DNA of 64,000 nt from Methylocella sp. (GTDB lineage: Bacteria; Pseudomonadota; Alphaproteobacteria; Rhizobiales; Beijerinckiaceae): positions 728 to 64,727 of the forward strand of contig DASRYK010000074.1 in NCBI GenBank assembly GCA_035687205.1, read 5' to 3'. Position numbers and translations under genes: made by a program. Positions 889 to 42,851 of this stretch are shown here, piece after piece. The notes below the pieces were generated by a model. The model worked only from the letters and a program-made list of their open reading frames with translations. It was not told the origin of the DNA and did not search any database. Numbering within the stretch: the stretch's first letter is position 1; each line of letters opens with the position of its first letter.

Positions 889-1170
889 ATGTCGTCACCA
901 TGGCCGGGCGCCCTGCTTGGCGCTCTCGCTGGCGCTGTGGCGGGGGCAGCGGGCGCCGCGCTTTTCGGCCCGCAGATCATGCGCCATGCGCGCCCCGCCG
1001 CCAAGGCGGCCCTGAAGGCCGCGCTCATTGCCGCCCACGAAGCAAGGGTTCGCGGAGCTGAATTTGTCGAAGCGGCCGAGGATCTCTATGCCGAGGCAAA
1101 AGCCGAGGTTGCGGCGGAAACGGCGGCTCAGGCCGCAGAGAGCGGAGAAACCTCCCCAGCCGCGCCCTGA
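889..1170 (+). CDS. DUF5132-like small membrane-associated protein
   Basis: AAGGAGG RBS upstream. Gly/Ala-rich hydrophobic N-terminus, then RPAAKAALKAA...EDLYAEAKAEV helix typical of DUF5132 (recognised by eye). Confidence 0.7.
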   Translation: MSSPWPGALLGALAGAVAGAAGAALFGPQIMRHARPAAKAALKAALIAAHEARVRGAEFVEAAEDLYAEAKAEVAAETAAQAAESGETSPAAP

Positions 1171-1197: not shown

Positions 1198-1662
1198 ATG
1201 GATGCGCCCATGAATAATGCGCTGCCCATGGCCGAGACCGCCCATGTGATTCCCGGCCGGACGCGCTTGCGCATAGCCGCGCAGCGCGGCAATGCAGCAT
1301 TTTTCGAGTCGGCCGCAGCCATTCTAAGAGCCATCCCGGGCGTGTCCAAAGCCGAAGGCCGGCCTTTGACCGGCAGCCTCGTGATTCACCACGATGCTCC
1401 CCTCTCCCTCATAGTCGCGGCCGCGCTTGAAAAGCGGCTTTTCGCTGTTGCGGAAAAAAACCCTGCCCCGGCACCCGAATGGCCTGAGCTTCCGCTTGAC
1501 TTGCGCAGCGCGGCCCGAATTGCCTTGGGCCTTTTGGCTTTTTGGCAGTTCATTGAGGGCCGCGTTCTGCCGCCCGCTTTGACCCTCGCGTGGTATGCCG
1601 CACGGCTTGCCCCTTTGCCGGCAGAGACGGATGAAGGGGATGCAGGGAACGGCAGCGATTGA
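1198..1662 (+). CDS. HMA2-like domain protein with C-terminal hydrophobic segment
   Basis: HVIPGRTRLR...GVSKAEGRPLTGSLVIHH matches the HMA2 pattern (PGRxR ... xxTGSxxx). C-terminal LGLLAFWQ...LPPALTLAWYA. Confidence 0.75.
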   Translation: MDAPMNNALPMAETAHVIPGRTRLRIAAQRGNAAFFESAAAILRAIPGVSKAEGRPLTGSLVIHHDAPLSLIVAAALEKRLFAVAEKNPAPAPEWPELPLDLRSAARIALGLLAFWQFIEGRVLPPALTLAWYAARLAPLPAETDEGDAGNGSD

Positions 1663-3770: not shown

Positions 3771-4991
3771 TCAGCCTTTCGTTAAGGTCCATTGCACGAT
3801 CGGCCGGGCGGGCGACCAGGCTTGAAATGTGCCAAGGGCATCGGCCCGCGAAATTGCGATCCGTGTCAGCTCGCCGCCCTGCGCGTTAAACCGGCGCATG
3901 AGTTCAGCCTCGGTTTCAAGCGTCACCGCATTGACGACGAGCCTACCGCCGGGCGCAAGCGCGGCAAGGGCCGCGTCGATGAGACCCGCATCGCTTGCGC
4001 CGCCGCCAATGAAGACGGCTTGAGGCTGAGGCAGGCCCGAGAGCGCCTCTGGCGCCCGGCCGGTGACAACTTCGATCTGCGGGACGCCGAGCCGGTCTGC
4101 ATTGCGGGCAATGAGACGCGCCCTGTCTTGCCGCATCTCGATCGCTATGGCGCGGTTGGCGGGGCTTCTCAGCAGCCACTCAATCGAGATCGACCCAGAA
4201 CCCGCGCCAATATCCCATAAGAGCTCGCCGCGCCGCGGGGCGAGCGACGAAATGGTGATCGCCCGCACCTCCCGCTTGGTGAGCTGCCCATCCGTCTCGA
4301 ACCAAAAATCCGGAAGCCCGCTCGCCCAAGGCAGCGTGCGTGATTGCGCCCCTGCGGCAATTTCGAGCGCAACGAGATTGAGAGGATCGATACCCGCAAG
4401 CGCAAAAGAGGAAGCCCGCGCCTCTCGCACGCGCTCCCGCGGCCCGCCCATGGCTTCGAGCACCACGATCCGGGAATCCTCAAGCTTCATCTCGCAAAGG
4501 AGCCTTGCAAGGCGCGCAGGCGTCGCCCCATCGCAGGAAAGGCACAGAATTCTTGCCGCAGGCTGGAGAAAGGGAATGATCTGCGCGAGATCGCGGCCGT
4601 GGACCGAGACGAGGCAGCAATCCTGAAGGCTCCACTTGAGCCTGGCCGCCGCGAGGCTGAAAGCGGAAGGGGCCGGGAAGCACTCCATTTCCTCCGGCGC
4701 GACATGAGCGCTGAGCAGGCTTCCCACGCCATAGAAAAAGGGATCGCCCGACGCGAGGATGCAAACCGGAAATCCGCGGTAGGCAAGAATGGCGGGGATG
4801 GCATCGGTCAAAGGCGAAGGCCAGCTCAGCATCTTGGCGGCAAGCGGGCCTGCAAGCTTAAGGTGGCGCTTGCCGCCAACAACAAGCCAGGCTTGCATCA
4901 GCCTCGCCCGCGCGGCAGGAGAAAGCGCGGCGGCGCCCTCCTCGCCAATACCGATGAGCGTCAGCCATTTCCCCGGTGTTTCCCTTGTCAT
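3771..4991 (-). CDS. cobL: Precorrin-6B C5,15-methyltransferase (CbiE/CbiT fusion)
   Basis: LIGIGEEG, LASGDPFFYGVG, GQLTKREVR, LWDIGAGSGSI, GGRLVVNAVTLET. Confidence 0.95.
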   Translation of the reverse strand: MTRETPGKWLTLIGIGEEGAAALSPAARARLMQAWLVVGGKRHLKLAGPLAAKMLSWPSPLTDAIPAILAYRGFPVCILASGDPFFYGVGSLLSAHVAPEEMECFPAPSAFSLAAARLKWSLQDCCLVSVHGRDLAQIIPFLQPAARILCLSCDGATPARLARLLCEMKLEDSRIVVLEAMGGPRERVREARASSFALAGIDPLNLVALEIAAGAQSRTLPWASGLPDFWFETDGQLTKREVRAITISSLAPRRGELLWDIGAGSGSISIEWLLRSPANRAIAIEMRQDRARLIARNADRLGVPQIEVVTGRAPEALSGLPQPQAVFIGGGASDAGLIDAALAALAPGGRLVVNAVTLETEAELMRRFNAQGGELTRIAISRADALGTFQAWSPARPIVQWTLTKG

Positions 4992-5023
4992 CGCGGCAGA
5001 TGCATGTTTTTCGGGCGGAAGCC

Positions 5024-5785
5024 ATGCGGGTTCTGATTCTTGGCGGGACGTCGGAAGCCAGCAAGCTTGCGGAACTCCTTGCCGCAGAGACCGGCATCAT
5101 GGCCGTTTTGTCTTATGCTGGCCGCACCACCGCCTTGCGTGCGCCGCCCATCCCCTATCGCACCGGAGGCTTTGGCGGCATCGAGGGGCTTGAGCATTAT
5201 CTGCGCTCCGGAAGAATCGATGTGCTTGTCGATGCCACGCATCCTTTTGCAGAACAAATTTCGCGCCATGCGCAAGCCGCTGCAGCGAGGGCGGGCATCC
5301 CCCTTGTTGTCCTGTCGCGCCCGCCCTGGGTGCCAGAGGCAGGGGACCGCTGGATCGAAGCTTCCACCATGGCGGAAGCAGCGCGCGCGCTCGGCGAGGC
5401 GCCGAAGCGGGTTTTTTTGACGATCGGGCGGCTGCAGATTTCTGCTTTTGCCGCGGCGCCGCAGCATTATTATCTGATCCGGACCATTGAGCCGCCAGGG
5501 CCGTTGCAGGACCTGCCGCGCGCCAAGGTCATCCAGGGCCGGGGCCCCTTCGAGGCCTCTGCGGAAGCGGAGATCCTGCGCGCTGAATCGATTGATGTGA
5601 TTGTGACCAAGAACAGCGGAGGAGAGGCGGCTTATGCCAAGATTCTCGCCGCCCGGCAGCTCGGCTTGCCGGTCATCATGGTCGCAAGGCCGCAAGAGGC
5701 TGCGGCTGCCGCCTTCCATGATCCCGCGGATGTCTTGGATTTCCTCTGCCGTCATAAAACGGCCTTGGCGCCGCGCGGCGTATAA
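5024..5785 (+). CDS. cobK: Precorrin-6A reductase
   Basis: MRVLILGGTSEA, GGFGGIEGL, VDATHPFAEQIS, VTKNSGG. Start moved to ATG 5024. Confidence 0.95.
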   Translation: MRVLILGGTSEASKLAELLAAETGIMAVLSYAGRTTALRAPPIPYRTGGFGGIEGLEHYLRSGRIDVLVDATHPFAEQISRHAQAAAARAGIPLVVLSRPPWVPEAGDRWIEASTMAEAARALGEAPKRVFLTIGRLQISAFAAAPQHYYLIRTIEPPGPLQDLPRAKVIQGRGPFEASAEAEILRAESIDVIVTKNSGGEAAYAKILAARQLGLPVIMVARPQEAAAAAFHDPADVLDFLCRHKTALAPRGV

Positions 5786-9210: not shown

Positions 9211-12200
9211 GCCTGCTCCCCCTGGGTGAAGGCGGCAAGAACGGCAAGCGCCGAGTTGCTCCGGGTTTGCCAAAAGCCGCGGGCACGGGCGTTCTCAAAG
9301 CATTTCGCAAGAGCGCGGGCAGCCCTCGGATTGGCGCTCATAAGAAATTCCCTCACTTCAGGTTTCCCAAGCGTCGCCCCGAACAAAAGATCGAAATGCT
9401 GGCTCCCCACCGCTTCGCTCAGCACCGCGAAAGCATAAAGATTGTCGGCCGCTGCCGCAATTTCCGCCGCGCCGCGATGGCCGTGCCGCATCTGGCCTGC
9501 GATCCAGCGCGGATTGGCGGCCCGGCCGCGCACCACTCTTGCGATTTCCTCCTTCAAAGTGCGCACCTTGACCGAAGCCGGCCTCGCGGTATTGGCATGA
9601 TAAAGCGTCACTTCGTTTCCGAGCAGACGCGCGGCCGCCGCAAAACCGCCCTCATGATCGGCGGTTTCGCTCGAATCGAGCACATCTCCTTCGTCCTGGT
9701 CCTGGCTGTGCACAAAGGCATCGGCAGTGGCAACCCGCCCAGCAAAATTTCTTGACGGAATGCCTTCGGCCAAAGCGCCGCAATAGGCATGGGACGCGGA
9801 AGCAAGGTAACGCGCTGCCAACGCCTCAGCAGGCAGCATCGGGTTCGCATCGATTGCCTCTGCCAGACCGATGCCGTAGACACCGGGCGCTGTGCCGAAA
9901 ATCCGCAAGGGCGCTTCCCCGGAGCACCGCTGCGCCGCGGCAAGCGGGTTGTGCTCATCGTCTTCGTCCAATGCGCCAACGGCTCGCACGGCTTGGCCGA
10001 AAAGCGTGACCTGCGCCGGAAAGACATCGCGGAAAAGGCCGGAGATCCGCAAAGTCACATCGACCCTCGGGCGCCCGAGGCTCGCGCAGGGGATGATCTC
10101 GAAGCCCGTCACGCGGGCGGAGGCATTATCCCAAAGCGGCCTGACGCCAAGAAGGGCAAGCGCTTGGGCAAGGTCTTCGCCCCCTGTGCGCATGGCGGCG
10201 CTTGCCCAAAGATCCATGACAATCCGCTTTGGCCACTCGCCATGATCTTGAAGATAGCGGGTCAGGACTTCTTGCGCAGCAGCGCGCCCCGTCTCCCAGG
10301 CGGTTCGAGAAGGCACGGCGCGCGGATCGGTTCCATAGAGATTGCGCCCTGTCGGCAGCACATCGATCCTGCCGCGGGACGGCGCTCCGCCAGGCCCCGG
10401 CGGGACAAAGCCGCCATCAAGCGCCTCGAGAAGCGCGGCGCGCTCGGCAGGCCCGCACGACCCCATGAGGCGGCCGATTCTCTGAACCGCTTCCTCGCCG
10501 CCATCCGCCGCCCCGGCTGCGCCCAGAATGGCAGCGGCCGCAGCCGCGAGACCGCCTTCCGGCGGCCGCCCGAAAATATGCAAACCGTCGGCGATCCGCA
10601 TTTCCTTCACATCGCAGAGCCAGCCGTCGAGTTGGCGCAGCGCGTCGGCAGGAGCCGCATCCTCATTGAGGCCGCATTCGTGAAAGAGCCCCGTCTCGCG
10701 GGCGCGCGTAAGGATGGCCTTTGCCAGACGCTTGGCGCGCTTGGGATCGAGCGCCTCGGCCGCGGCATATTCATCAAACAGGGTTTCAAGCTCGAGCGCT
10801 GCGCCATGATGGCCGGCATGGATGAGGGGCGGAGTCAGATGGCTGATGGTTAGGGCGCAGATGCGCCGTTTTGCCTGCGCCGCCTCGCCCGGGTTATTGA
10901 CGATGAAGGGATAGATGACGGGCAGCGGGCCGAGAACCGCCTCTGGAGCGCAGCTTCTGTCCAGCGCCACCGCCTTGCCGGGCAGCCATTCGAGCGTGCC
11001 ATGGGTGCCGCAATGGATGATGGCATGGACCTTTTCGCATTCGCGCAGCCAAGCGTAGAAAGCGATATAAGCATGGCAGGGCGCAAGCGCGGCATCGTGA
11101 TAATCCGCCTTGCGGGTTTCGCGATTGCCGCGATCGGGCTGGAGCGCAATGAGCAAATTTCCGGCGCGGATCACTGGAAAAACAAATGCGCCGCCCTCCG
11201 CGGCATCCCGGGGATCACCCCACTGCGCGCGCACTTGCCCGGCAAATGCTGCGGGCATGTCATCGAATGCGCGGAGATAACTCGAAAGAGGAAAGAGCGC
11301 TGCTCCGGCGCCCTCTTCGAGGCGGCGCATCATACTTTCCGCGCGCGGCAGCGGCGTAACGCTGTAGCCGGCTTCTTGAAGGATCCTGGCGATCTCCGCC
11401 GCGCTGCCTGCGGTGTCGAGGCCAACGGCATAGCCGCCGCGGCCTTGCCTTCCCGGATAGTCTGGCAGGATACAGGCGATCTTGCGCCGGGCGCGCGGGG
11501 TCCTGCGCAGGATCACCCATGAAGCGGCCAGGCTCGCCACAAATTCCGTGCGTGACGGCAGCGGAGCATGAACCCGCGGGGCGAATTCGAGATCGGCACG
11601 GCGGCTTGCTTCCTCTTTGAAAGCAAAGGCGCGGGTTATCAGCCGCCCGTCGAGCTCCGGGAGGACGGCATTCATTGCAAGATCCGCAGCGCCCAGGCCG
11701 CGGGGATTATTCCGCCACTGCGCCTCTTCAGCGCTTGAGAGGATTGCCTGCAGCACCGGCACGCGGGCCTCATCGAGAACGCTAGATTCATCTTCGAGGC
11801 GCGCTGAAAAGCCTGTTGTGTTGACGATGATGTCAGGCCTGCAGCGGGAAAGCTCCTCGCGAAGCCAAGCAATGGCCTCCGTCTCCTTGAGACTGGCCAC
11901 AAAGACCGCCGTCACGGAAAGACCGCGCGCGGCAAGCACATCCGCCAGAGCCTCAATCGCCGCCGTGTCGCCCGCTAATAAGTAGGAGCGGTAGAATACA
12001 ATGAGAGCTTTGCCCAAGCAGGGCTCTGCCCTGCGGCAGCCGCCCTCGTAGCGCCCAGCGGAGGGAGCCGCTGAGGCAGGCGGCAGCGCCCGCCAAACCG
12101 GAGCTTCGCGCTCAAAGCTTTCGGCAAAAGCCAGCACCGCACCCACATGTTCGACCCCGCCCATCTGGAAAGCAGCGTGAATGCGCCGGAGATCAGCAAT

Positions 12201-12593
12201 GGGCACCGTCGAAGCCGCATCGAGCCTCTCGTCTTCCGTCGAGTCGCCCGGCACGGCGGCAAAGGCAAACCCTTTGCTGCGCGCCGCGCGCGCGAGCTCC
12301 TCGATACCATAGCGCCAATAATCGAGCCCGCCCAAGAGGCGGACCAGAACGAAGCGCGCATGGCCCACGGTTTTCTCAAGATAAAGATCAACCGAATAAG
12401 GGTGCTTGAGCCAGGCAAGATTGGCTAGCCTGAGGCTCATGGCGCCGGGGGGGCGCTGCCGCGCGGTTTCCGCCACAAGGCTCAGATCGCTGTCCGAATA
12501 GGAAAGAAACAAAATGCCAGCGGGAGTCTGGCCAAGGTCGGCGGCCGCTTCGGCCTCGTCCAGAGATCGCGAATCGATCCGCAAGAGATGCAT
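9207..12593 (-). CDS. cobN: Cobaltochelatase subunit CobN
   Basis: MHLL N-terminus, HCGTHGTLEWLPGK, YPFIVNNPGEAAQAKRR, LPTGRN, RVDVTLRISGLFRDVFP. Confidence 0.96.
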   Translation of the reverse strand: MHLLRIDSRSLDEAEAAADLGQTPAGILFLSYSDSDLSLVAETARQRPPGAMSLRLANLAWLKHPYSVDLYLEKTVGHARFVLVRLLGGLDYWRYGIEELARAARSKGFAFAAVPGDSTEDERLDAASTVPIADLRRIHAAFQMGGVEHVGAVLAFAESFEREAPVWRALPPASAAPSAGRYEGGCRRAEPCLGKALIVFYRSYLLAGDTAAIEALADVLAARGLSVTAVFVASLKETEAIAWLREELSRCRPDIIVNTTGFSARLEDESSVLDEARVPVLQAILSSAEEAQWRNNPRGLGAADLAMNAVLPELDGRLITRAFAFKEEASRRADLEFAPRVHAPLPSRTEFVASLAASWVILRRTPRARRKIACILPDYPGRQGRGGYAVGLDTAGSAAEIARILQEAGYSVTPLPRAESMMRRLEEGAGAALFPLSSYLRAFDDMPAAFAGQVRAQWGDPRDAAEGGAFVFPVIRAGNLLIALQPDRGNRETRKADYHDAALAPCHAYIAFYAWLRECEKVHAIIHCGTHGTLEWLPGKAVALDRSCAPEAVLGPLPVIYPFIVNNPGEAAQAKRRICALTISHLTPPLIHAGHHGAALELETLFDEYAAAEALDPKRAKRLAKAILTRARETGLFHECGLNEDAAPADALRQLDGWLCDVKEMRIADGLHIFGRPPEGGLAAAAAAILGAAGAADGGEEAVQRIGRLMGSCGPAERAALLEALDGGFVPPGPGGAPSRGRIDVLPTGRNLYGTDPRAVPSRTAWETGRAAAQEVLTRYLQDHGEWPKRIVMDLWASAAMRTGGEDLAQALALLGVRPLWDNASARVTGFEIIPCASLGRPRVDVTLRISGLFRDVFPAQVTLFGQAVRAVGALDEDDEHNPLAAAQRCSGEAPLRIFGTAPGVYGIGLAEAIDANPMLPAEALAARYLASASHAYCGALAEGIPSRNFAGRVATADAFVHSQDQDEGDVLDSSETADHEGGFAAAARLLGNEVTLYHANTARPASVKVRTLKEEIARVVRGRAANPRWIAGQMRHGHRGAAEIAAAADNLYAFAVLSEAVGSQHFDLLFGATLGKPEVREFLMSANPRAARALAKCFENARARGFWQTRSNSALAVLAAFTQGEQA

Positions 12594-22925: not shown

Positions 22926-25900
22926 ATGATCGCGCTGATGTTGAAGAGCAATTCCCCGAGGCCCGGCTGGGCAGCGCTTTTTCATCCAGCAGTTGCCGCA
23001 TGGTTTGCACGCGCCTTCGGGGCGCCCACCGCTGCGCAGGCCGAAGCGTGGCCCGCTATTCAGGCCTCCGAGCATGTATTAATCGCCGCCCCCACAGGTT
23101 CGGGCAAGACGCTCGCTGCGTTTCTCGCCGCGATCGATTCACTCGTCCGGCAAGCGCTCGAGGGAAGGCTCAAGGACGAAACGCAAATCATCTATGTCTC
23201 ACCGCTCAAAGCCCTGTCCAACGACATAGAGAAAAACCTGCAAGCTCCCTTGGCCGGAATCCGCGAAATGCTGCGCGCTCAGGGGCTTCCTGATCCCGGA
23301 ATCCGCGCTCTTGTTCGCACGGGAGACACGCCCCAAGGCGGGCGCAGCCATATGCGCCGCCGCCCGCCGCATATCCTCGTCACGACGCCGGAGTCGCTGT
23401 TCATTTTGCTCACATCCGAGTCCGGCCGGGGGATGCTTACGGCCGCGCGGACCGTGATCGTCGATGAGATTCATGCGCTCGCGCCGAACAAGCGCGGAGC
23501 GCACCTTTCGCTCTCGCTAGAGCGGCTTTCTGCGCTTTGCGCGCATCCCTTGCTGCGCGTGGGCCTCTCGGCGACAGCAAAGCCGCTCGAAGACATTGCG
23601 CATTTTCTCACCGGCGCCCGCCCCTCAAGCTCTGGAGAGGCGCCATGCAGGATCATCGACACGGGTCATTGCCGGAAGCGTGATCTTGCCATCGAGCTTC
23701 CTCCTTCTCCGCTCGAATCCGTAATGGCAGGCGAGGTCTGGGAACAGGTTTACGGCCGTCTTGCCGGGTTGATCGAAACCCATCGCAGCACGCTTGTTTT
23801 CGTCAACACCCGCCGCATGGCCGAGCGGGTTGCGCGCGCCCTCTCCGGCCGCTTAGACCCTGATCTGATTGCCGCACACCATGGAAGCCTTGCAAAGGAG
23901 CAGCGGCTTGATGCCGAGCAGCGGCTAAAGAATGGAAAGCTCAAAGCGCTCGTTGCAACCGCCTCGCTTGAGCTCGGAATCGACATCGGCCATGCCGATC
24001 TCGTCTGCCAGCTTGGCTCGCCGCGTGCCATCGCGGCTTTTCTCCAGCGGGTGGGGCGCTCCGGCCACGCCGTCGGCGGGACGCCGAAGGGGCGGCTCTT
24101 CCCGCTTTCCCGCGACGACCTTGCCGAATGCGCGGCGCTGCTTGACGCGGTGCGCCGGGGCGAGCTCGATCGGCTTGCGATCCCCGAGAACCCCCTCGAT
24201 GTCCTTGCGCAGCAGATTGCCGCCGAGGTTTCTGCCCGCGAGTGGGACGAGGATGCTCTTTACCGCCTCTATTGCCGCGCTTGGCCTTACCGCAATCTTG
24301 CGCGGAAAGACTTCGGCGAGGCTGTGGCAATGCTGGCCGAAGGCTTCAGCACCCGGCGGGGCCGGCGCGGTGCCCTCCTTCATTACGACGCTGTGAACCG
24401 TAAACTGCGCGGCCGGCGCGGCGCGCGCCTTACCGCTTTGACGTCGGGCGGGGCAATTCCGGAAAACGCCGACTACCGCGTGCTCCTTGAACCCGAAAAT
24501 CAATTCATTGGCACGGTGCATGAGGACTTTGCCGTCGAAAGCATGGCCGGGGATATTTTCCAGCTCGGCAATCAGTCCTACAGGGTTCTGCGCGTCGAAC
24601 GCGGCTCTATGCGGGTTGCGGATGCCCAGGGCATGCCCCCAACGATCCCGTTCTGGCTGGGTGAAGCGCCAGGGCGCAGCAACGAGCTGTCCTGCTCGGT
24701 CTCGCGCCTCAGGAAAGAAGCTGAAGCGCGCCTGCCGCCAGGGCAAGATATTGAGGCTGCTGTGCATTGGCTCTGCAGGGACGCAGGTCTAGCGGAGCCT
24801 GTCGCGCGGGAGCTGGCCGCTTATCTCGCGGCGGGAAAGGCAGCGCTTGGCTGCTTACCATCACAAGATACGATCGTCTTCGAGCGTTTCTTCGATGAAT
24901 CGGGCGGCATGCAGCTCGTCATCCATTCACCTTACGGCAGCCGGATCAACCGCGCCTGGGGCCTCGCGCTGCGAAAGCGTTTCTGCCGGAAATTCAATTT
25001 TGAGCTCCAAGCGGCAGCAACCGACGATAACATCCTGCTTTCGCTTACCGGCGCGCATAGTTTCGAGCTAGCCGAGGTCAAGCGCTATCTCACCCCGGCA
25101 ACGGTACGGAGCCTTTTGATCCAGGCGCTGATCAATGCGCCGATGTTTGTGACCCGCTGGCGCTGGGTTGCAGGGATTGCGCTTGCGCTTCCGCGGTTCC
25201 GCAGCGGCAGGAAGGTTCCTGCCTATCTTGCCCGGATGGATGCGGAGGACCTGATGGGCGCGGTCTTTCCCGACCAGATCGCCTGTGCCGAGAACATCGT
25301 TGGCGACCGGGAGATTCCAGATCATCCGCTGGTCCGCCAGACCATTGCCGATTGCCTTCATGAGGCCATGGACATTGAGGGTCTCGAAAGACTCCTGGGA
25401 AGAATCGAGTCCGGCGCGGTTGCAGTCGTATGCCGCGATCTTACGGCGCCATCGCCCCTTGCACAGGAAGTGCTTTTAGCGCGGCCTTATGCCTATCTGG
25501 ATGACGCCCCGCTCGAAGAGCGCCGGGCGCAGGCCGTCATGGCGCGGCGATGGCTTTCGCCAGAGTCTGCAGCAAGCCTCGGCCAGCTCGATCCCGAAGC
25601 AATCGCCCGCGTGCGGGACGAGGCCTGGCCTGATGCGGCCAATCCGGACGAATTGCACGACGCGCTTCTTTGGGCGGGATTTCTGAGCGCTGATGAAGCG
25701 GAGGCGCAGCCGGGCTGGCTCAGCTTTCTCAAATGCCTCGCAAATGAACGCCGCGCAGCGCTCCTTTCCTTGGCGAATACCGGGTTATGGGTTGCGGCCG
25801 AGCGGCTGCATCACTTCAAGGCTCTGATGCCTGCGGCAAGGGTCGAGCCGCCGCTTGAACGGCCCGCAAACTGCCGGCCGGAGCTGTTGGCGCCCGAAGC

Positions 25901-27320
25901 TGCTTTGATCGAGATCGTCCGCGGCCGCCTTGAGGCCCTAGGGCCGGTAACAGCAGCGTCTCTTGCGGCGCCTCTCGGGATTGAAGTCAGCGCGGTCCGG
26001 GCAGCGCTCGCAGCTCTGGAGATGGAAGGCTTTGCTATGCGCGGCCGCTTTACGCCAGATGCCCGCGCGGAGGAATGGTGCGAGCGCCGTCTCCTTGCGC
26101 GGATCCACCGGTATACTGTGAAGCGCCTGCGGGCTGAGATCGAGCCCGTGCCGGCGCGGGATTTTCTGCGTTTCCTTCTCACCTGGCAGAAGGTCTTGCC
26201 TGAGGCGCGGATGGCCGGTCCGGAGGCCCTTGCCGCAATCATCGCACAGCTTGAAGGATTCGAAGCGCCTGCTTGCGCCTGGGAGAGTGAAATTCTGCCT
26301 GCCCGCCTCGAAAACTACGATTCATCCTGGCTCGACGATCTGTGCTTTGCCGGACGGATCGCCTGGGCGAGGCTCAGGCCGTGCATGGAACGGCCGGGCA
26401 GCGCGGCTCCCCCCTCCTTGCGCACAACGCCCATTACTTTTCTCTCACGCCGTCATGCTGCTCTATGGGCGTCACTTGCGCCGCCAGCCGAGGGGCCTGC
26501 GCCAAGCGCTCGCGCCGAGGCCATTGCCGCGTTCCTGCGCGAGAATGGCGCATCCTTCTTTGAGGAAATCGCCGAAGGCGCGGGGCAGTTGCGCTCACAG
26601 GCCGAAGAAGCTCTCTCCGAGCTTGCCGCCGCTGGCCAGGTTACATCCGACAGCTTTGCTGGTTTGCGGGCCTTGCTTGTGCCCTTGAGCCAGCGTCGGA
26701 CCGCGGCGCGCGCCAGGCAGAGGAGGCGCATGGTGATGAGCATTGAGCATTCTGGCCGCTGGGCGCTCGTGCGGAAAAGGAATGCCGGGCACTCCGCACG
26801 AGAGAAAAAAGCTGAGGCTGCCGAGCATGCAGCCCGCACACTGCTTCTCCGCTACGGCGTCGTATTCCGGCGCCTTCTCGACCGCGAGGCGGCCTGGCTA
26901 CCGCCTTGGGGGGAGCTGCTGCGCATCTACCGCATGCTTGAAGCGCGCGGCGAAATTCGCGGCGGCCGCTTCATTGCCGGATTTACAGGCGAGCAATTCG
27001 CGCTGCCCGAGGCGGTGGGCAAGCTGCGCGAGACCCGGCGCGAGCCGGAAAAGAGGATGATTGTTTCGCTATCGGCCGCAGATCCTCTAAATCTGACCGG
27101 CATTTTGACCCCCGGCCCCCGGCTCCCCGCTCTTGCCGCCAACCGGCTTCTTTATGAGGACGGCGTTCCCCTGGCCTTCCTTGCGGGCGGCGAAATCAAG
27201 TTTCTTAAGACGCTTGATCCCGCCCGCGCCTGGGAATGTCAAAAAGCTTTGCTGCGTGCCGCTTCCCCTGCGGTGGAGAAGCGCCTTTGCGCCGAAAGCC
27301 CCGGACTCCTTGTCAGGTGA
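22926..27320 (+). CDS. lhr: Lhr-family ATP-dependent helicase (long form with C-terminal winged-helix region)
   Basis: [54 protein letters not shown]. Confidence 0.9.
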
Positions 27321-27513
27321 GAAAAGCTTCTCTCAAGCAAGAAAGCCACGTTCAAGCCATTGTCATCCGTTTTCGAGAAGATTCGTTCACGCCTAATGAT
27401 ACGGCCCCGGCTGGGTTTGTTTCGCCGGTTCGCAAGGCCTGGCCGGCACCGTAAAAGTCTTGTGCTATGCCGTGACATGGGCACAGCCAGAAAGAAACGT
27501 CAAAGCGGCCATA

Positions 27514-30500
27514 ATGATTGATCCGGAAAATCCTGGCGCAGTGCCAAACAAAGCTCCGCAGCAGCCCAATGGCAGGCTAAGACCAGGCCGAGGCGCCAAA
27601 ATCGTCCATGACGCAGTAAAGGGCCGCATCCGCTTCCGGCATAGGGAGCTTACCGGGCGGCCCGGTCTCGCATTGGCTGTCATGGAGTCGCTTCGCCGCT
27701 GCCATGACGTTAAAAGCGTGCGGGCCAGCGCGCTCACAGGCTCCGTGCTTGTCGAATTCGGATCTGCCGTGACGGCTTCGCAGCTCGCGCAAGCCATCGA
27801 CGCAATCGTGAACGGCCACAGCGCTTCGCTTGCGTTGCAGCTTTCTCTCGAGCGCTCCTTGTCCGCTGCTGGAGCTTCCGGGAGCCAGGCCGCCGGTCAG
27901 GCATGGCATGCTTTATCAGCCGCGGAGGCATCCAAACAGCTCGGCGCATGCCTCGAAAGCGGCTTAGCGCCTGAAGAAGCGCAGCGCCGGATCGCGCTTT
28001 ATGGCCGCAACGAGATGCAGAGACTCGAGGCACGCCCGCTGCTTGCGATCTTTACCGAGCAAACGACAAGCCTGCCGATGATCTTGCTTGCTGTTTCTGC
28101 GGGGCTCTCGATTGCCACAGGCGCTTTCGGCGACGCTGTTGTCATCGTTGCCGCCATGCTGCTTAATTCGATGATTGCCACAGCGACGGAGCGCCAGGCT
28201 GAGCGCACCATCGTAGGCCTCTCGAACACGGCGTTGCAACCGGTGCCCGTTTTGCGGGGCGGCCGCCGCCGTCTTATCGATCCGGCCGATCTCTCGCCCG
28301 GAGATCTCGTGCTGCTTGAGCGCGGAGCGCTTGTCCCCGCAGATGCGAGGCTTGTTAAAGCTGCCGACCTCACCGTGAACGAATCCGCTTTGACCGGTGA
28401 AGCGCTTCCTGTCCAGAAGGATGCTGGACTTGTTCTTCCAGCCGATACGCCTCTGCCTGACCGCAAGAATATAGTTTTCCGCGGAACTGCCGTGACCGGA
28501 GGGTCCGCTGCGGCACTTGTCTTTGCCACCGGCAGAGCGACTGAGATCGGAAAGCTTCAGCAGCTCTTAGGCATGGTGCGCCCGCCCGAGACGCCTATGC
28601 AACGCCAGCTCGATGAGGTCGAGCGCGAGCTTGTCGCTGTCAACAGCGTCATTTGCGCCTGTGTTTTTGGCATTGGACTCTTGCACGGCAACGGTCTAAT
28701 CGCGACCATCCGCAGCGCGATCGCTCTTGCAGTCGCTGCCCTTCCGGAGGGGTTGCCCGCGGTGGCGACAACGGCCCTTGCAATCGGTGTCCAGCAGATG
28801 CGCAGACGCCATGTGCTCGTGCGCAAGATCGGCGCTCTCGAAACGCTTGGCTCCATTCAGGTGATTGGCCTCGACAAGACCGGCACGCTCACCGAGAACC
28901 AAATGGCAGCCGTGGCGGTCCATGCCGGAAGCCGTTATCTCGTCCTTCGCGAAAACCGCTTCGTTTGCGAGGGCAATGATCCCGGCGAAATGATCGCTGG
29001 CATCGTGCGGCGCTTATTCGAGGTGACCGCTCTTTGCAGTGAAGCTGCCATCCGCCTGCTGCCCGAAGGCCCTGAGATCGAGGGCACCCCCACAGAAAGC
29101 GCGCTGGTCTCGGCGGCTCTGGCGCTTGGCATCGACGTTGCTGCCCTCCGCGCCTCTGCTCCTATCGTCAAAATGGCGGTGCGCGCGGAAGGGCGTAAAC
29201 GGATGAGCACGCTCCATGAGACCGCTGGCGGCGGGCGCAAGCTCTGTGTCAAGGGCGATCCCGTGGAGGTGCTGTCGCTCTGCACGCATCTGCTCATGCC
29301 AGACGGTCTTGCCGCGCTCGACGAGGCAAGCCGCGCGGCAATCCTCAAGGCCAATGATCGGATGGCTGGCCAAGCCTTGCGCGTGCTCGGCGTGGCTGCG
29401 GCTGAGGGAGAGAGGGATCCTGCAAACGAGAGCGGATTAGTTTGGCTTGGTCTTGTGGGCCTTGCTAACCCAATCCGGCCAAGCGTCGTCCCTGCGCTAG
29501 CAAGGCTCCAGCGCGCTGGCATCCGCACCGTGATGATCACTGGCGATCAGAGCGCGACAGCCTTTGCGATTGCAAAGGATCTGCGCCTCAACGCAGATGG
29601 CGAGCTCGTCGTCCTTGAAGCGGGCCGCATTGCGGGTCTCAAGCCCGAGGTCCTGGCCGCTCTCGTCGCCCGGCCGCATGTTTTCGCCCGGGTGAGCCCT
29701 GTCGAAAAGCTCAACATCGTGAAAGCGCTTCAGGCGCAAGGCCTGATTGTCGCCATGACGGGGGACGGGATCAATGATGGCCCGGCCCTAAGGGCGGCCA
29801 ATGTCGGCATTGCGATGGGCGGCGAGGGCACAGATGTTGCGCGGGAGGCGGCCGACATCGTGCTTGCCCGCGATGATCTCGAGGGCATTATTGAAGCCAT
29901 CCGTCTCGGCCGCTCGACCTATGCCAATATGCGCAAGGTCCTGCGCTACCTTACATCAACGAATACGGCCGAGACATTGATTATGCTCGCGGCCGCTGTT
30001 GTTAACCGCGGCGAGCCTCTCACGCCGATGCAGCTTTTGTGGGCGAACATCGTTGGCGAGGTTGCCCCTGCGCTGGCGCTCGCTCTTGAGCCGCCAGAGC
30101 CGCGCGTTCTCGACCAGCCGCCGCACGACCCCCGCGCGCCTATTCTGACAAGCGCCGATTTCCACAAAATCGTCCGTGAAGGCGTTGTCATCGGAACAAT
30201 GGCTCTTGGCGGATATTTTCTTTCGCTGGGCGCAGGGGAAAGAGGGGCAAAGAGCGTTGCCTTTCACAGCCTTGCCCTTTCACATTTTCTTCAAGCCATC
30301 AGCTGCCGGTCGGAGACCCGCGGCTTTACGGCTGAGTTCTGCCGGCCCTCGAGCACAAAGCTTTATGGCGGGCTTGCAGTTTCGGCTCTCCTCCAAGCCA
30401 TGGCGCAGTTTGTGCCGCCCCTTCGCCGGGTCCTAAATCTTGCTCCTCTCGCTTCCAAGGAGCTTGCTGCCATCGCTGGCAGCGCTCTTGGCGGCGCGGC

Positions 30501-30576
30501 CGTCAATGATATTTTGAGCGCTATCTTTCGCGATTCCAAAACATTGCGAAGCCAAGGCCTTGCAGGAAACCCATGA
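27514..30576 (+). CDS. P2A-type cation-transporting P-type ATPase with N-terminal HMA2-like domain
   Basis: KGRIRFR...ASALTGSVLVEF N-domain, WHALS...GL..EAQRR...GRN, ESALTGEA, ALPEGLP, DKTGTLT, TGD, GDGINDGPAL. Confidence 0.92.
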   Translation: MIDPENPGAVPNKAPQQPNGRLRPGRGAKIVHDAVKGRIRFRHRELTGRPGLALAVMESLRRCHDVKSVRASALTGSVLVEFGSAVTASQLAQAIDAIVNGHSASLALQLSLERSLSAAGASGSQAAGQAWHALSAAEASKQLGACLESGLAPEEAQRRIALYGRNEMQRLEARPLLAIFTEQTTSLPMILLAVSAGLSIATGAFGDAVVIVAAMLLNSMIATATERQAERTIVGLSNTALQPVPVLRGGRRRLIDPADLSPGDLVLLERGALVPADARLVKAADLTVNESALTGEALPVQKDAGLVLPADTPLPDRKNIVFRGTAVTGGSAAALVFATGRATEIGKLQQLLGMVRPPETPMQRQLDEVERELVAVNSVICACVFGIGLLHGNGLIATIRSAIALAVAALPEGLPAVATTALAIGVQQMRRRHVLVRKIGALETLGSIQVIGLDKTGTLTENQMAAVAVHAGSRYLVLRENRFVCEGNDPGEMIAGIVRRLFEVTALCSEAAIRLLPEGPEIEGTPTESALVSAALALGIDVAALRASAPIVKMAVRAEGRKRMSTLHETAGGGRKLCVKGDPVEVLSLCTHLLMPDGLAALDEASRAAILKANDRMAGQALRVLGVAAAEGERDPANESGLVWLGLVGLANPIRPSVVPALARLQRAGIRTVMITGDQSATAFAIAKDLRLNADGELVVLEAGRIAGLKPEVLAALVARPHVFARVSPVEKLNIVKALQAQGLIVAMTGDGINDGPALRAANVGIAMGGEGTDVAREAADIVLARDDLEGIIEAIRLGRSTYANMRKVLRYLTSTNTAETLIMLAAAVVNRGEPLTPMQLLWANIVGEVAPALALALEPPEPRVLDQPPHDPRAPILTSADFHKIVREGVVIGTMALGGYFLSLGAGERGAKSVAFHSLALSHFLQAISCRSETRGFTAEFCRPSSTKLYGGLAVSALLQAMAQFVPPLRRVLNLAPLASKELAAIAGSALGGAAVNDILSAIFRDSKTLRSQGLAGNP

Positions 30577-31754
30577 CACCGGATATGGTCTTCACCTCCG
30601 AGTCGGCCACACCCGGTCATCCGGACAAGCTCTGCGACCAGATCAGCGATGCTGCCATTGATGCTTTTCTGCGCCAGGATCCCGCGGCCCGCGCTGTAGT
30701 TGAATGCGCGGTTGCGACGGGCGTCGTCTTCCTCGCTGCCCGTTTTGCCGCTGAGGCGGCTGTGGATCTGCCTTCGCTGGCGCGCAAGGTGATCGCGGAT
30801 GCCGGCTATCTCAACGGCCATTTCGACGCGCGCAGCTGTGCCATTCTGACGAGCTTTTCCGAGCTTCCGATGAACATGCGTGAGCCGCCGCTTGTCTCCC
30901 TCGATGAGGAGGCGGCCGAACGCTGCGTCGCGCATGACCAGGCCAATGTGTTCGGCTTTGCCTGCCGGGAAACGCCGGAGCTTATGCCGCTGCCGATCAG
31001 CCTCGCTCACCGCCTGGCACGCGCCATCGACCGTGCCCGGCAGTCTTACGCCCCCTGGCTCTCGCCGGACGGCAAGACTCAGGTCTCTGTCGAATACCGG
31101 AACTGGCGCCCGCAGCGCATCAGCGCAATCTCCGTGACGGCAGCTTTCAACGCGGGCACGCCGCCGGGAAAGGCAGACGAATGCCTGCGCGCTCTCGCAC
31201 TGGATTGTTTTGCAGGCGGGGATTTGAAGCCTGACTCGAAGACAGAAATCCACATCAATGCGGCGGGTGTCTACGAAAGCGAGGTTGGCGGCCCCACGCG
31301 GCATGCAGGACTGACCGGCCGGAAGAATGGAATCGACACCTATGGCGAGTTCGCCCGGCAGAGCGGCGCGGCTCTCTCAGGAAAGGATCCCTCGCGGATC
31401 GACCGGATTGGCGCCTATGCTGCCCGCCATGCCGCAAAGAATGTCGTTGCCGCAGGGCTTGCTGAGCGCTGCGAGGTGCACCTCTCCTATGCGATCGGGC
31501 GCGCACGCCCCTTGAGTCTCGCAGTCGAAACATTCGGCAGCGGCAAAGTGCCGGATCGCGAAATTGCAGAGCGCCTCGGGCGGAGCCTCGATTTCCGCCC
31601 TGCCGCCATCTCGCACCGCTTCGGGCTGCGCACGGCGCCCGGGCGCTTGGGCGCTGAAGGCTTTTATCAGCCGCTCGCCGTGTTTGGCCATTTCGGGCGC
31701 ACCGACCGGAACTTGCCCTGGGAGGCAGCCGATGCCGTGGAAGCTCTCTCCTGA
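30573..31754 (+). CDS. Methionine adenosyltransferase-like protein (atypical MetK paralog)
   Basis: FTSES..GHPDK, DGKTQV, GLTGRK..DTYG, SGKD, AAKNVVAAGLA, GHFGR are present, but the Met-binding residues are substituted. ATGA overlap with the ATPase. Confidence 0.88.
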   Translation: MTPDMVFTSESATPGHPDKLCDQISDAAIDAFLRQDPAARAVVECAVATGVVFLAARFAAEAAVDLPSLARKVIADAGYLNGHFDARSCAILTSFSELPMNMREPPLVSLDEEAAERCVAHDQANVFGFACRETPELMPLPISLAHRLARAIDRARQSYAPWLSPDGKTQVSVEYRNWRPQRISAISVTAAFNAGTPPGKADECLRALALDCFAGGDLKPDSKTEIHINAAGVYESEVGGPTRHAGLTGRKNGIDTYGEFARQSGAALSGKDPSRIDRIGAYAARHAAKNVVAAGLAERCEVHLSYAIGRARPLSLAVETFGSGKVPDREIAERLGRSLDFRPAAISHRFGLRTAPGRLGAEGFYQPLAVFGHFGRTDRNLPWEAADAVEALS

Positions 31755-31827
31755 ACTTCCGGGATTGCGATTACACCCATTGAGATCCCCTCGCCAGGAA
31801 GCGCAGCTCAGCACCGAGCGAGATGCG

Positions 31828-32865
31828 GTGACGCCGTCTCATCAGGATGGGACCCCGGCCGAGGAGCCTCCGCGGTTCCGGCAAAGGCCGCCTTGGCTTG
31901 GCGGCGATCTCCAAACCCTGCGCAATGCCCTGCTTCCGGCTCCCCAGGAGCTGCCCGGCGGCGAGCGCCTGCTGCTGCCGCTTGCCGATGGCGAGAAGCT
32001 TGCCGCGCGGCTCGACATTCCGGCAGAGCGCAAGGCAGGACCGCTCCTTGTGCTGGTGCATGGCCTTGCTGGCTCGGAGGCAAGCGCCAATGTCGTGGCG
32101 AGCACCCGGTATTTCTTGCGTCAAGGCTGGGCCGTCCTGCGCCTCAACCTGCGGGGGTCGCTTCCCTCGCTTCCTTCGGCTCCTGGGCATTACCACGCCG
32201 GTAAGACAGAGGACCTCGCGGACGCTCTGCGCGGGCTGCCGGATGCTCTGACGCGGCATGAGATCGTTCTCATCGGTTATTCACTCGGCGGCAATCTCGT
32301 TCTGAAATTTATAGGCGAAGGCGGGCACGGCCTGCCCATTCTGGCTGTTGTTGCAGTCTCGGCCCCGATCGACCTTGCCGCAACCTGCGCCTGCATGATG
32401 ACCCCGCGCAATTTTCTCTATCACCGCTATATGCTTCAGGCGATGAAGCGCGAGGCGCTGGCAGAAGGCGCCAGCGTGAGCAGCGCCGAGCGGGCGGCCA
32501 TCGCTGCCGCGCGGAATGTCTTTGAATTCGATGACCTCTTTATCGCGCCGCGCTTTGGCTACAATGGCGCCCTGGACTATTACGATAGCAATGCTGCCAA
32601 ACATTTTCTCGCCGGCATCGACCGGCCAACGCTCATTCTTCATGCGCTTGACGATCCCTGGATCCCTGGCACCTGTTACACCGCGATCGATTGGCCCCGG
32701 ATGCCCATGATCGAGGCAGTGCTCACGCCTCGCGGCGGGCATCTCGGCTTCCATGGCCAAGGCAGCCGCATCCCCTGGCACGACCGGATGACTGCATGGT
32801 GGCTTGCCAGAACGTTCCTTTCCGCCAAGAGTGGCGGGCGCCCAAACCTGTCTTTGTCAGGCTAA
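31828..32865 (+). CDS. YheT-family alpha/beta hydrolase
   Basis: WLGGDLQT, HGLAGS, GYSLGG nucleophile elbow, DDPWI, GGHLGF. Start GTG 31828 is approximate. Confidence 0.88.
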   Translation: MTPSHQDGTPAEEPPRFRQRPPWLGGDLQTLRNALLPAPQELPGGERLLLPLADGEKLAARLDIPAERKAGPLLVLVHGLAGSEASANVVASTRYFLRQGWAVLRLNLRGSLPSLPSAPGHYHAGKTEDLADALRGLPDALTRHEIVLIGYSLGGNLVLKFIGEGGHGLPILAVVAVSAPIDLAATCACMMTPRNFLYHRYMLQAMKREALAEGASVSSAERAAIAAARNVFEFDDLFIAPRFGYNGALDYYDSNAAKHFLAGIDRPTLILHALDDPWIPGTCYTAIDWPRMPMIEAVLTPRGGHLGFHGQGSRIPWHDRMTAWWLARTFLSAKSGGRPNLSLSG

Positions 32866-41333: not shown

Positions 41334-42851
41334 ATGCAGCAGCAATTCTACGGGAATATCGAGATAGGCACGGGCGGCAGCAAGGAGCTTGGCCCCTGGG
41401 CGGCGGGACGGTGCTTTGACGAAATGACCCTCGCCGATGGCGCTATCCGGCTGGCCTATGCCAAGATCGCACGCTGGCTTGCCGCCACGCCAGCCGCTGT
41501 TCTCGCTTCACGCCGCACGCAAGCCGAGCTCCTCTTCCGGCGTATCGGCATCACATTCGCGGTTTACGGGGAAGATCAGAAGGATGGGACCGAAAGACTC
41601 ATCCCCTTCGATATTATTCCGCGGGTGTTGTTGCGCTCGGAATGGGCGAGGCTCGAATCCGGGCTCGTCCAGCGCGTGAAAGCCCTGAATTGTTTCCTCG
41701 CTGACATTTATGGCCCGCAGGAGATCATCAAGGCAGGGCGGATCCCGTCTGATCTAATTGCCCGGAATGCCGAGTACCGCGAAGTGATGGCCCGTTTCCA
41801 GGTGCCCCACGGAATCTATGTTCATATCGCCGGCATCGACCTTGTACGCACCGGCGAAAATGACTTCTACGTGCTCGAGGATAATGTGCGCATACCATCC
41901 GGCGTGTCCTATATGCTGGAGAACCGCGAGGTGATGATGCGCCTGACGCCTGACCTCTTTGCCGAGCATCGTGTGGCGCCTGTCGAGAATTATCCTGACG
42001 CTTTACTGGCAGCGTTGCGCTCGGTTGCCCCGCCTGCTGCTGCAAGGGAGCCCACAATTGTTGTGCTGACCCCTGGGCGTTACAACTCGGCTTATTACGA
42101 GCATTCCTTTCTGGCGGATAAACTTGGCGTCGAGCTTGTCGAAGGCAGCGATCTGCTCGTCAAGGATGATACCGTTTATATGCGCACCACGGAAGGCGCA
42201 AAGCGCGTCGACGTGATCTATCGCAGGGTCGATGACAGCTTCCTTGATCCGCTCGTTTTCAGGCCCGATTCTGTCCTCGGCGCACCAGGCCTGATGAGAG
42301 CCTATTTTGCAGGCAATGTGACCATTTGCAATGCAGTTGGAACCGGAATCGCGGATGACAAGGCCATCTACACCTATATGCCCGAGATCATTGAGTTCTA
42401 TCTCGGCGAAAAAGCAATTTTGAAGAACGTGCCCACTTGGCGATGCCGGGAGCCAAGTGCTTTGCGTTACGTGCTCGACAACTTGGCTGAGCTCGTCGTT
42501 AAAGAAGTTAACGGCTCAGGCGGGTATGGAATGCTCGTCGGCCCGCATGCCACAAAGGCTGAACGGGAGACTTTCGCAGCGAAGCTATCCGACAATCCGG
42601 AAAATTTCATAGCCCAGCCAACGCTAGCGCTCTCCACAGTCCCCACCTACTTTGATGCCGGCATAGCACCACGCCATGTCGATCTGCGGCCCTTTGTGCT
42701 GACCGGCACGGCCGGGATCCGGGTGGTTCCAGGCGGGCTGACCCGTGTAGCGTTGAAAGAGAAATCCCTTGTGGTCAATTCGAGCCAGGGTGGAGGAACC
42801 AAGGACACATGGATTGTCGAAGATTCGATCTTCGATGAGGCTTTTCTTTGA
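41334..42851 (+). CDS. Circularly permuted ATP-grasp type 2 protein (DUF404/407)
   Basis: GITFAVYG, PFDIIPR, GIDLVR, LEDNVRIPSGVSY, NSAYYEH, VIYRRVDD, GTGIADDKA, VVNSSQGGGTKDTW. Confidence 0.93.
   Translation: MQQQFYGNIEIGTGGSKELGPWAAGRCFDEMTLADGAIRLAYAKIARWLAATPAAVLASRRTQAELLFRRIGITFAVYGEDQKDGTERLIPFDIIPRVLLRSEWARLESGLVQRVKALNCFLADIYGPQEIIKAGRIPSDLIARNAEYREVMARFQVPHGIYVHIAGIDLVRTGENDFYVLEDNVRIPSGVSYMLENREVMMRLTPDLFAEHRVAPVENYPDALLAALRSVAPPAAAREPTIVVLTPGRYNSAYYEHSFLADKLGVELVEGSDLLVKDDTVYMRTTEGAKRVDVIYRRVDDSFLDPLVFRPDSVLGAPGLMRAYFAGNVTICNAVGTGIADDKAIYTYMPEIIEFYLGEKAILKNVPTWRCREPSALRYVLDNLAELVVKEVNGSGGYGMLVGPHATKAERETFAAKLSDNPENFIAQPTLALSTVPTYFDAGIAPRHVDLRPFVLTGTAGIRVVPGGLTRVALKEKSLVVNSSQGGGTKDTWIVEDSIFDEAFL

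Follow-up and report, generated by a model that had tools for sequence, protein, structure and literature searches.

Background

MetK, the methionine adenosyltransferase (MAT; EC 2.5.1.6) or S-adenosylmethionine (SAM) synthetase, is among the most conserved enzymes known. Here we describe a divergent relative of this enzyme, encoded directly behind a P-type ATPase gene at positions 30573-31754 of a 64,000-nucleotide stretch of a Methylocella sp. draft genome (GenBank assembly GCA_035687205.1, contig DASRYK010000074.1; the whole stretch is referred to as the window). We rate this MetK-like protein as a member of what appears to be a neofunctionalised MetK-fold family that is tied to a calcium-type pump and has been systematically mis-annotated. 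The features of the window on which this assessment is based are the following:

27460-30576, forward strand: P2A-type P-type ATPase headed by a CoBaHMA domain (Pfam HMA_2, Cation_ATPase_N, E1-E2, Hydrolase and Cation_ATPase_C)
27604-27786, forward strand: N-terminal CoBaHMA domain (HMA_2, PF19991) of the pump, residues 49-109 of the 1038-amino-acid open reading frame (ORF); Pfam score 28.1 bits, slightly below the 30-bit cut-off
30573-31754, forward strand: pump-linked MetK-like protein, 393 amino acids (MetK Pfam domains, structure model, clade membership and signature C45/R57/H244/L268/R275)
30864-30947, forward strand: equivalent of the gating loop and GAGDQG motif, residues 98-125 (...ELPMNMREPP...CVAHDQAN), whose canonical positions are less than 60% conserved in the paralogue clade
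31290-31403, forward strand: active-site loops GGPTRHAGLTGRK ... SGAALSGKDPSRID, residues 240-277, with H244, R250, K251, K271, R275 and D277

Among the described systems, MetK (TIGR01034; structures 1RG9 and 7LL3 from E. coli, 7R3B from L. plantarum) is closest to the protein itself. Both share the three-domain fold (TM-score 0.88, about 40% identity), and the MetK-like protein retains the catalytic His as well as the ligands of Mg2+, K+ (E42) and triphosphate. In contrast to MetK, other residues stand in for the methionine-binding E55, Q98, D238 and K269; conservation within the clade is lost in the gating loop, the GAGDQG and STQH motifs and the adenine-stacking Phe, and this clade is separate, always linked to a pump and coexists with true MetK. 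The pump is most similar to the P2A Ca2+-ATPases (LMCA1, 6ZHF; SPCA1; SERCA), with ion-site residues in transmembrane segments (TM) 4, 5 and 6 conserved in 54 orthologues, yet it differs from them by its N-terminal CoBaHMA domain and the translationally coupled MetK-like gene; we know of no solved or studied P2A pump with a MetK-like partner. The ferrosome (fez) clusters also combine a P-type ATPase with small membrane proteins in a conserved, patchily distributed accessory cluster. FezB of these clusters, however, is a P1B-6 ATPase, and by this description the window pump, which is of the P2A type (PEGL, no CPx, similar to LMCA1, SPCA and SERCA), is set apart; to our knowledge no MetK-like gene has been described in fez clusters.

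The domain that Pfam calls HMA_2 is the CoBaHMA domain (bioRxiv 10.1101/2024.07.07.602159), known from work on intracellular CaCO3 in cyanobacteria (PMC8890360; bioRxiv 10.1101/2024.07.07.602159). In Microcystis aeruginosa PCC 7806, the neighbourhood of the calcyanin gene ccyA, linked to intracellular amorphous CaCO3, resembles the module described here in that CoBaHMA and DUF5132 proteins are found beside a calcium transporter (bioRxiv 10.1101/2024.07.07.602159; PMC8890360). There, however, calcium is carried by a Ca2+/H+ exchanger, calcyanin (which was not searched for in the window) serves as the marker, and no P-type ATPase or MetK-like gene is mentioned with this neighbourhood (bioRxiv 10.1101/2024.07.07.602159). 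A literature search for MetK-like proteins together with P-type ATPases returned nothing relevant besides the genome paper of Methylococcus capsulatus, which reports two divergent metK genes, MCA0450 and MCA0139 (PMC517821); it found no paper treating the pump-linked family, and no functionally divergent family of bacterial MetK paralogues has been characterised in the searchable literature.

A MetK-like protein with an altered methionine pocket

The reading frame is open and intact, and its product matches the N-terminal, middle and C-terminal SAM synthetase domains of Pfam (PF00438, PF02772 and PF02773; E values 4e-29, 1e-26 and 3e-50). With 322.3 bits the protein passes the curated equivalog cut-off of NCBIfam TIGR01034 (309.4 bits) only marginally, by about 13 bits; canonical copies reach 454-633 bits, and those from its own genus 465-475 bits. 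An AlphaFold2 (AF2) model built from the family alignment is confident overall (predicted local distance difference test, pLDDT, 89; predicted TM-score 0.90), and the top matches of this model in a Foldseek search against the PDB are all MetK/MAT structures, with 7r3b from L. plantarum as the best.

The roles of the active-site residues are well described for the E. coli enzyme (EcMAT): His14 is the catalytic acid, Phe230 stacks on the adenine, the ribose is held at its hydroxyls by Asp163 and Asp238, and methionine at its amino group by Asp238 and Glu55 and at its carboxylate by Gln98 and Lys269 (PMC3853416, PMC1282579). The same two sources document what a first, sequence-only reading of this locus had taken as established, namely that E55, Q98, D238 and K269 grip the amino and carboxyl groups of the substrate. 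That reading had proposed an intact ATP and triphosphate site next to a rebuilt methionine pocket, and alignment with E. coli MetK (a sequence 100% identical to PDB 7ll3_A; residue numbers here are those of the window protein unless marked Ec) bears it out on both counts. The residues listed as kept, H16, D18, K19, E44, D122, D166, K168, R250, K251, K271 and D277, are all present, and they include the equivalents of Ec H14, D16, K17, K165, R244, K245, K265 and D271, i.e. the catalytic His and the Mg2+ and triphosphate ligands. The four substitutions, E55 to R57, Q98 to L98, D238 to H244 and K269 to R275, are found at the codons given for them (30741, 30864, 31302 and 31395, arithmetically correct), VAHDQA takes the place of GAGDQG, and SGAALSGKD that of GGGAFSGKD. 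At the canonical gating loop, QSxDIAxG, the window protein reads ELPMNMRE. By comparison, E, Q, D and K are kept at the four methionine-binding positions in 38 of 38 aligned canonical MetKs.

Conservation of the changed residues across the family

The MetK-like protein has hundreds of relatives at 50-75% identity. They occur in Alpha-, Beta- and Gammaproteobacteria (Methylocapsa, Methylocystis, Methyloceanibacter and Methylococcus capsulatus) and further in Desulfobacterota, Geobacter, Myxococcota, Chloroflexota, Acidobacteriota, Planctomycetota and one cyanobacterium, with methanotrophs and sulfate reducers among the carriers. In an alignment of 63 of these relatives from at least 8 phyla, on which all conservation counts given here are based, 59 positions are invariant, the changed residues included. 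H16, D18, E44, D166, H244, R250, K251, K271 and R275 are found in every member, while K19 (59/63), C45 (60/63), L268 (61/63) and D277 (61/63) are nearly invariant; all six named residues of the loops at 31290-31403 thus belong to one of these two groups. C45 adjoins E44, the equivalent of the canonical K+ ligand E42. Position 57 is basic in 61 members (50 Arg, 8 Lys, 3 His).

Other parts of the site have been released from the canonical constraint. Q98, D101, I102, A103 and G105 of the gating loop and G115, G117, D118 and G120 of the GAGDQG motif, all conserved to at least 90% in canonical MetK, fall below 60% in the paralogue clade, and conservation is likewise lost at the STQH motif, T227, F230, V231, H257 and G260, which also reach at least 90% in canonical MetK. 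At position 234, the equivalent of Ec F230, Phe (19 members) is found beside Leu (16), Tyr (11) and Val (11), and position 122, the equivalent of Ec D118, is most often Asn (30), followed by Asp (14) and Glu (11). Nevertheless, 71 positions are identically conserved in canonical MetKs and in the paralogue clade.

The first reading had held that random substitutions among homologues at the four pocket positions would speak against it; instead, His at 244 and Arg at 275 are found in 63 of 63 members and a basic residue at 57 in 61. Its picture of four concerted changes therefore stands for positions 57, 244 and 275, with family-wide constraint, and fails for position 98, which is variable. Similarly, D122 is kept in the window protein as stated, but not in the family as a whole, as the counts above show. 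In the tree of homologues that the same reading had called for, the pump-linked sequences form one clade: a single branch with a length of 0.63 and maximal support in the Shimodaira-Hasegawa-like approximate likelihood ratio test (SH-aLRT 100) separates 64 of them from 38 canonical MetKs. As part of our reading as a whole, we consider this clade probably a distinct, ancient and widespread MetK-fold family whose members are not SAM synthetases.

Linkage to the pump

The ATG of the MetK-like gene overlaps the TGA of the upstream ATPase gene as ATGA (30573-30576). A P-type ATPase is encoded directly upstream in all paralogue loci that extend far enough, and the Bacillota matches without such a neighbour turned out to be canonical MetKs. 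The same ATGA junction of stop and start codon is present in 26 of 58 loci, and most others show distances between -29 and +15 nucleotides. Pairwise identities of the pump core and of the MetK-like proteins are strongly correlated (r = 0.89; Mantel test, 0 of 999 permutations), with mean pairwise identities of 50% for the pump core and 55% for the MetK-like proteins. Paralogue and pump orthologue are present in the same two of 25 Methylocapsa genomes, that of the window and that of Methylocapsa aurea. Among 251 genomes of the order, a pump orthologue was found in two, the window's genome and one other (G182), each with a MetK-like gene behind the pump. Judged from gene order and paired divergence, gene and pump have demonstrably been co-inherited as a unit.

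Sampling was also done from the side of the pump. Four loci were recovered in this way, two with the full module, one (L110) in which the pump is followed by a 108-amino-acid fragment of the S-AdoMet_synt_M domain, and one from Methylosinus sp. Sm6 (JAINDZ010000013.1). The latter encodes the pump, the small CoBaHMA protein and the small partner, and the MetK-like gene is absent both from the pump locus and from the whole genome. The existence of these two pumps without an intact MetK-like partner shows that the MetK-like protein is dispensable in some lineages. As it was never found without the pump, while the pump can lack it, the dependency is one-way, i.e. the MetK-like protein would serve the pump module and not the reverse. 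An apparent fusion of both proteins in Methyloceanibacter superfactus, a frame of 1379 codons, was rejected: the C-terminal part of the pump lies in another frame with its own stop codon 13 nucleotides before the MetK-like ATG, and the long frame results from high G+C content and a frameshift. With its strict coupling to the pump, the MetK-like protein would be the first MAT-fold partner of a calcium-type P-type ATPase.

The pump itself begins, as the longest ORF (1038 codons), at TTG 27460, with an alternative ATG at 27514. Its closest solved structures are Listeria LMCA1 (6zhf), SPCA1 and SERCA, and it contains the motifs PEGL, DKTGT and TGDGINDGPAL; a CPx motif is absent from it. In the 54 orthologues, the Glu of PEGL in TM4, Asn and Glu in TM5 and Asn-x-x-Thr/Ser-Asp in TM6 are invariant or nearly so. 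We take these residues to correspond to E309, N768, E771, N796, T799 and D800 of SERCA, its set of Ca2+ ligands, and on this basis the substrate of the pump is likely of the Ca2+ type (or Mn2+/Mg2+). The window pump deviates within this set: its TM6 motif, LLWANIVGEVAP, has Gly-Glu where 52-53 of the 54 orthologues have Thr/Ser-Asp, presumably at the equivalents of SERCA T799 and D800, and its ion site may thus be altered.

Canonical MetK in the genome

In the draft assembly (95% complete, 165 contigs), no MetK-like sequence other than the paralogue is present. An archaeal-type MAT (PF01941), considered as an alternative housekeeping SAM synthetase, has no match in the assembly. The first reading had made its interpretation depend on a canonical metK elsewhere in the genome; formally the draft thus speaks against it, but synteny assigns the absence to an assembly gap. 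With a complete congeneric genome (G004) as the reference, the alignment of contigs C50 and C13 extends to position 6699 of the reference stretch, and that of the window's contig, C74, begins at reference position 12561, from base 22 of the contig. The gap between C13 and C74 amounts to about 5.9 kb by synteny, and the genes flanking it are cut by the contig ends (aligned over 519 of 584 and 415 of 649 amino acids). Four genes of the reference lie within this gap, among them the canonical metK at 9268-10434, and none of the four has a counterpart anywhere in the draft assembly. The window ORF at 3-734, open at its 5' end, is the C-terminal part of the 649-amino-acid gene cut by the start of C74.

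Canonical MetK and the paralogue coexist in 38 of 40 other carrier genomes, where they score 390-633 and 313-387 bits, respectively; the two carriers without canonical MetK are metagenome-assembled genomes of 1.9-2.0 Mb. All other Methylocapsa genomes that are at least 76% complete also have a canonical metK. Given the synteny gap and the 38 carriers with both genes, the canonical metK is almost certainly present in the organism but unassembled. This case illustrates that pump-linked MetK-like genes can mask a truly missing metK in draft genomes. In addition, their annotation as methionine adenosyltransferase, together with their passing of the NCBI equivalog cut-off, leads to inflated metK counts. 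For the gene analyzed here, this database name is probably wrong.

Possible functions of the MetK-like protein

The pattern of conservation is uneven across the active site: the half that holds Mg2+ and triphosphate is constrained, the methionine pocket has become basic, and recognition of the adenosine is partly relaxed. This combination speaks for a new function and against the alternatives of decay or an ordinary SAM synthetase. It also supports the first reading's preference for a new specificity over decay and for a partner of the adjacent pump, which gains further support from the separate clade and from adjacency to and co-inheritance with the pump. We think it fairly probable that the protein, rather than acting as a SAM synthetase, has been neofunctionalised as a partner of the pump and binds or hydrolyses a Mg-triphosphate ligand. 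In such a scheme the MetK-type dimer would be retained, and its composite site would bind the Mg2+-triphosphate moiety of a ligand, with ATP, tripolyphosphate or a polyphosphate chain end as candidates, and would probably hydrolyse it. Arg, Lys or His at position 57, H244 and R275 would convert the old methionine/ribose pocket into an extra anion-binding site. The protein would be a soluble, stoichiometric accessory of a module made up of the pump, DUF5132 and small CoBaHMA proteins, and it may link phosphate-anhydride chemistry to the pump or act as a reporter of this chemistry. The sequence does not discriminate between the three roles offered by the first reading, namely an enzyme with a new adenosyl acceptor, a tripolyphosphatase and a nucleotide sensor. 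The retention of the Mg-triphosphate site together with the loss of the adenine stack and the gating loop leans away from adenosyl transfer and towards binding or hydrolysis of triphosphate or polyphosphate. Mutagenesis in the Markham laboratory reportedly showed that K165 is required for SAM formation but dispensable for tripolyphosphatase activity, and that substitutions of D118 and D238 cripple SAM synthesis; the variation in the family at the equivalents of these residues (K165 replaced in some members, D118 mostly Asn, D238 always His) would fit this pattern. The rebuilt pocket offers a direct and cheap experimental handle.

Several points weigh against this explanation. We infer the ligand solely from the pattern of conserved residues, and physical contact with the pump from gene order alone. 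The phosphate contact K168 (Ec K165), Lys in 51 of the 63 members, is replaced in the remaining 12, and the invariant H16, the catalytic acid of C5'-O5' cleavage, and D166 would also fit a retained adenosyl transfer. The window copy is among the less diverged members of the family, as it keeps D122 and an aromatic residue at position 234. Furthermore, the AF2 monomer is least confident exactly at the active-site loops: pLDDT falls to 49-65 at residues ~231-270, a segment whose equivalent in MetK lies at the dimer interface, and the predicted structure therefore provides no usable pocket geometry.

The protein could instead still be an adenosyltransferase, acting on a different, anionic nucleophile: a carboxylate, thiolate or oxyanion substrate held by R57, H244 and R275 would attack C5' of ATP with release of tripolyphosphate (PPPi), as happens in MetK. 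The invariance of H16, of the ribose ligand D166 and of the whole PPPi site would be expected in this case, as would the conservation of three basic residues where the amino and carboxyl groups of methionine used to be bound (PMC3853416). However, the residue that stacks on the adenine varies, the ribose-binding D238 is His in all members, most members have Asn, Glu or Gln in place of D118, conservation is lost in the gating loop, the element that shuts over the substrate, and clustering of the flanking ORFs revealed no conserved biosynthetic or salvage genes for an adenosylated product nearby; we therefore regard such an enzyme as unlikely. We see a similarly small chance that the protein is a catalytically dead scaffold, a pseudoenzyme that only docks onto the pump or onto CoBaHMA domains. 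The loss of canonical substrate-recognition elements and the strict gene coupling would suit this role, and CoBaHMA domains have been proposed to bind anionic partners (PMC8890360; bioRxiv 10.1101/2024.07.07.602159), but if the protein were no more than a scaffold, one would not expect all Mg2+/triphosphate ligands and the catalytic His to be invariant over at least 8 phyla, or the protein to be slightly more conserved than the core of the pump it attends.

It is very improbable that the gene encodes a true SAM synthetase, be it a second isozyme whose kinetics are altered or the sole one of the organism. The 13 bits by which it passes the TIGR01034 cut-off, its being the sole metK-like sequence in the draft assembly and the public annotation of its relatives as methionine adenosyltransferase would be accounted for, but all four methionine-binding residues are changed, gating loop and GAGDQG are degenerate, and the protein falls outside the canonical clade. 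Besides, a canonical MetK accompanies the paralogue in nearly all carriers and is found in the other sufficiently complete Methylocapsa genomes, and the canonical locus coincides with the C13-C74 gap, where both flanking genes are cut by contig ends. Decay of a duplicate into an incipient pseudogene, to which the low scores against MetK models might point, can be considered refuted: the frame is intact, translational coupling is conserved, the invariant positions extend over many phyla and include the changed ones, and H244, R275 and the residues of the Mg-triphosphate site are invariant and position 57 basic across at least 8 phyla.

The explanation we prefer also has a bolder version. In it, the MAT fold would have been recruited for binding or hydrolysing tripolyphosphate or polyphosphate ends, with R57, H244 and R275 as an extra phosphate site; the enzyme would form a stoichiometric complex with the pump, a Ca2+-type ATPase gated by CoBaHMA, and the module, including the DUF5132 and CoBaHMA membrane proteins, would load or manage an intracellular store of Ca-(poly)phosphate or Ca-carbonate. 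In this full form the proposal is rather doubtful and is put forward as speculation; if true, the store would represent a previously unrecognised bacterial storage body.

Further genes of the module and its surroundings

Two further genes that usually belong to the module are present near the beginning of the window, and a hydrolase gene follows the MetK-like gene:

889-1170, forward strand: DUF5132-like small membrane protein, 93 amino acids, a usual module member (71% identity by tblastn with module members of Methylocapsa aurea and other loci as queries; Pfam DUF5132 weak, E 0.012)
1198-1662, forward strand: small stand-alone CoBaHMA (HMA_2) protein, 154 amino acids, a usual module member (Pfam HMA_2, 37.4 bits, E 3e-9)
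31765-32865, forward strand: YheT-like alpha/beta hydrolase with uncertain start (TTG 31765, TTG 31780 or GTG 31828; Pfam Abhydrolase_1, NCBIfam PRK10985)

When the flanking ORFs were clustered, 43 of 66 loci proved to encode a small membrane protein of the DUF5132 type; in most loci, a gene for a small stand-alone CoBaHMA protein adjoins the MetK-like gene. All four module genes are thus located within the window, yet the pair at 889-1662 is 26 kb away from the pump and the MetK-like gene, whereas the four genes are adjacent in M. aurea, in Methylocystis and in G182. In M. aurea, the DUF5132 and small CoBaHMA genes directly follow the MetK-like gene on the opposite strand. The surroundings of the module differ between the two Methylocapsa genomes, in keeping with a mobile set of accessory genes. 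Outside this module, CoBaHMA and DUF5132 proteins are discussed only as neighbours of ccyA, the calcium-carbonate gene of cyanobacteria, and they would link the module to bacterial intracellular mineral stores.

The YheT-like hydrolase was considered as a third module member and rejected, as tblastn found no homologue in any other paralogue locus. A putative Pho box upstream of the pump (27350-27366, GTTCAAGCCATTGTCAT, a direct repeat with 3 mismatches) was also discarded, with 18 such matches in the window against 21.7 expected by chance. Directly upstream of the pump, 22926-27320 on the forward strand encodes an Lhr-type DEAD/H helicase of 1464 amino acids with an AlkZ-like region, which is not conserved with the module elsewhere. 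In some delta-, beta- and gammaproteobacterial loci (L035, L037, L038, L040, L042, L044, L045, L054, L060 and L069), a Gly/Val/Ala-rich helical-repeat protein of ~200-270 amino acids with a weak match to Phasin_2 (E 0.013) is encoded alongside the module; the window lacks it. A gene for an MgtE-family Mg2+ transporter lies 1-2 kb from the module in several alphaproteobacterial loci (L022, L023, L111 and L112; Methylocystis and relatives), and polyhydroxyalkanoate (PHA) synthase or DUF3141 genes are found near it in some. Elsewhere in the window, a circularly permuted ATP-grasp protein (CP_ATPgrasp_1/2, E 5e-169) is encoded at 41334-42851 on the forward strand and is apparently unrelated to the MetK-like gene. 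Finally, a third, more divergent MetK-like ORF of 522 amino acids was noticed in another genome of the same genus (L114, positions 4038-5606 on the reverse strand; G011, contig C23). It scores 170 bits with TIGR01034, has an N-terminal extension of ~145 amino acids and no adjoining P-type ATPase, and may belong to another MetK-derived family.

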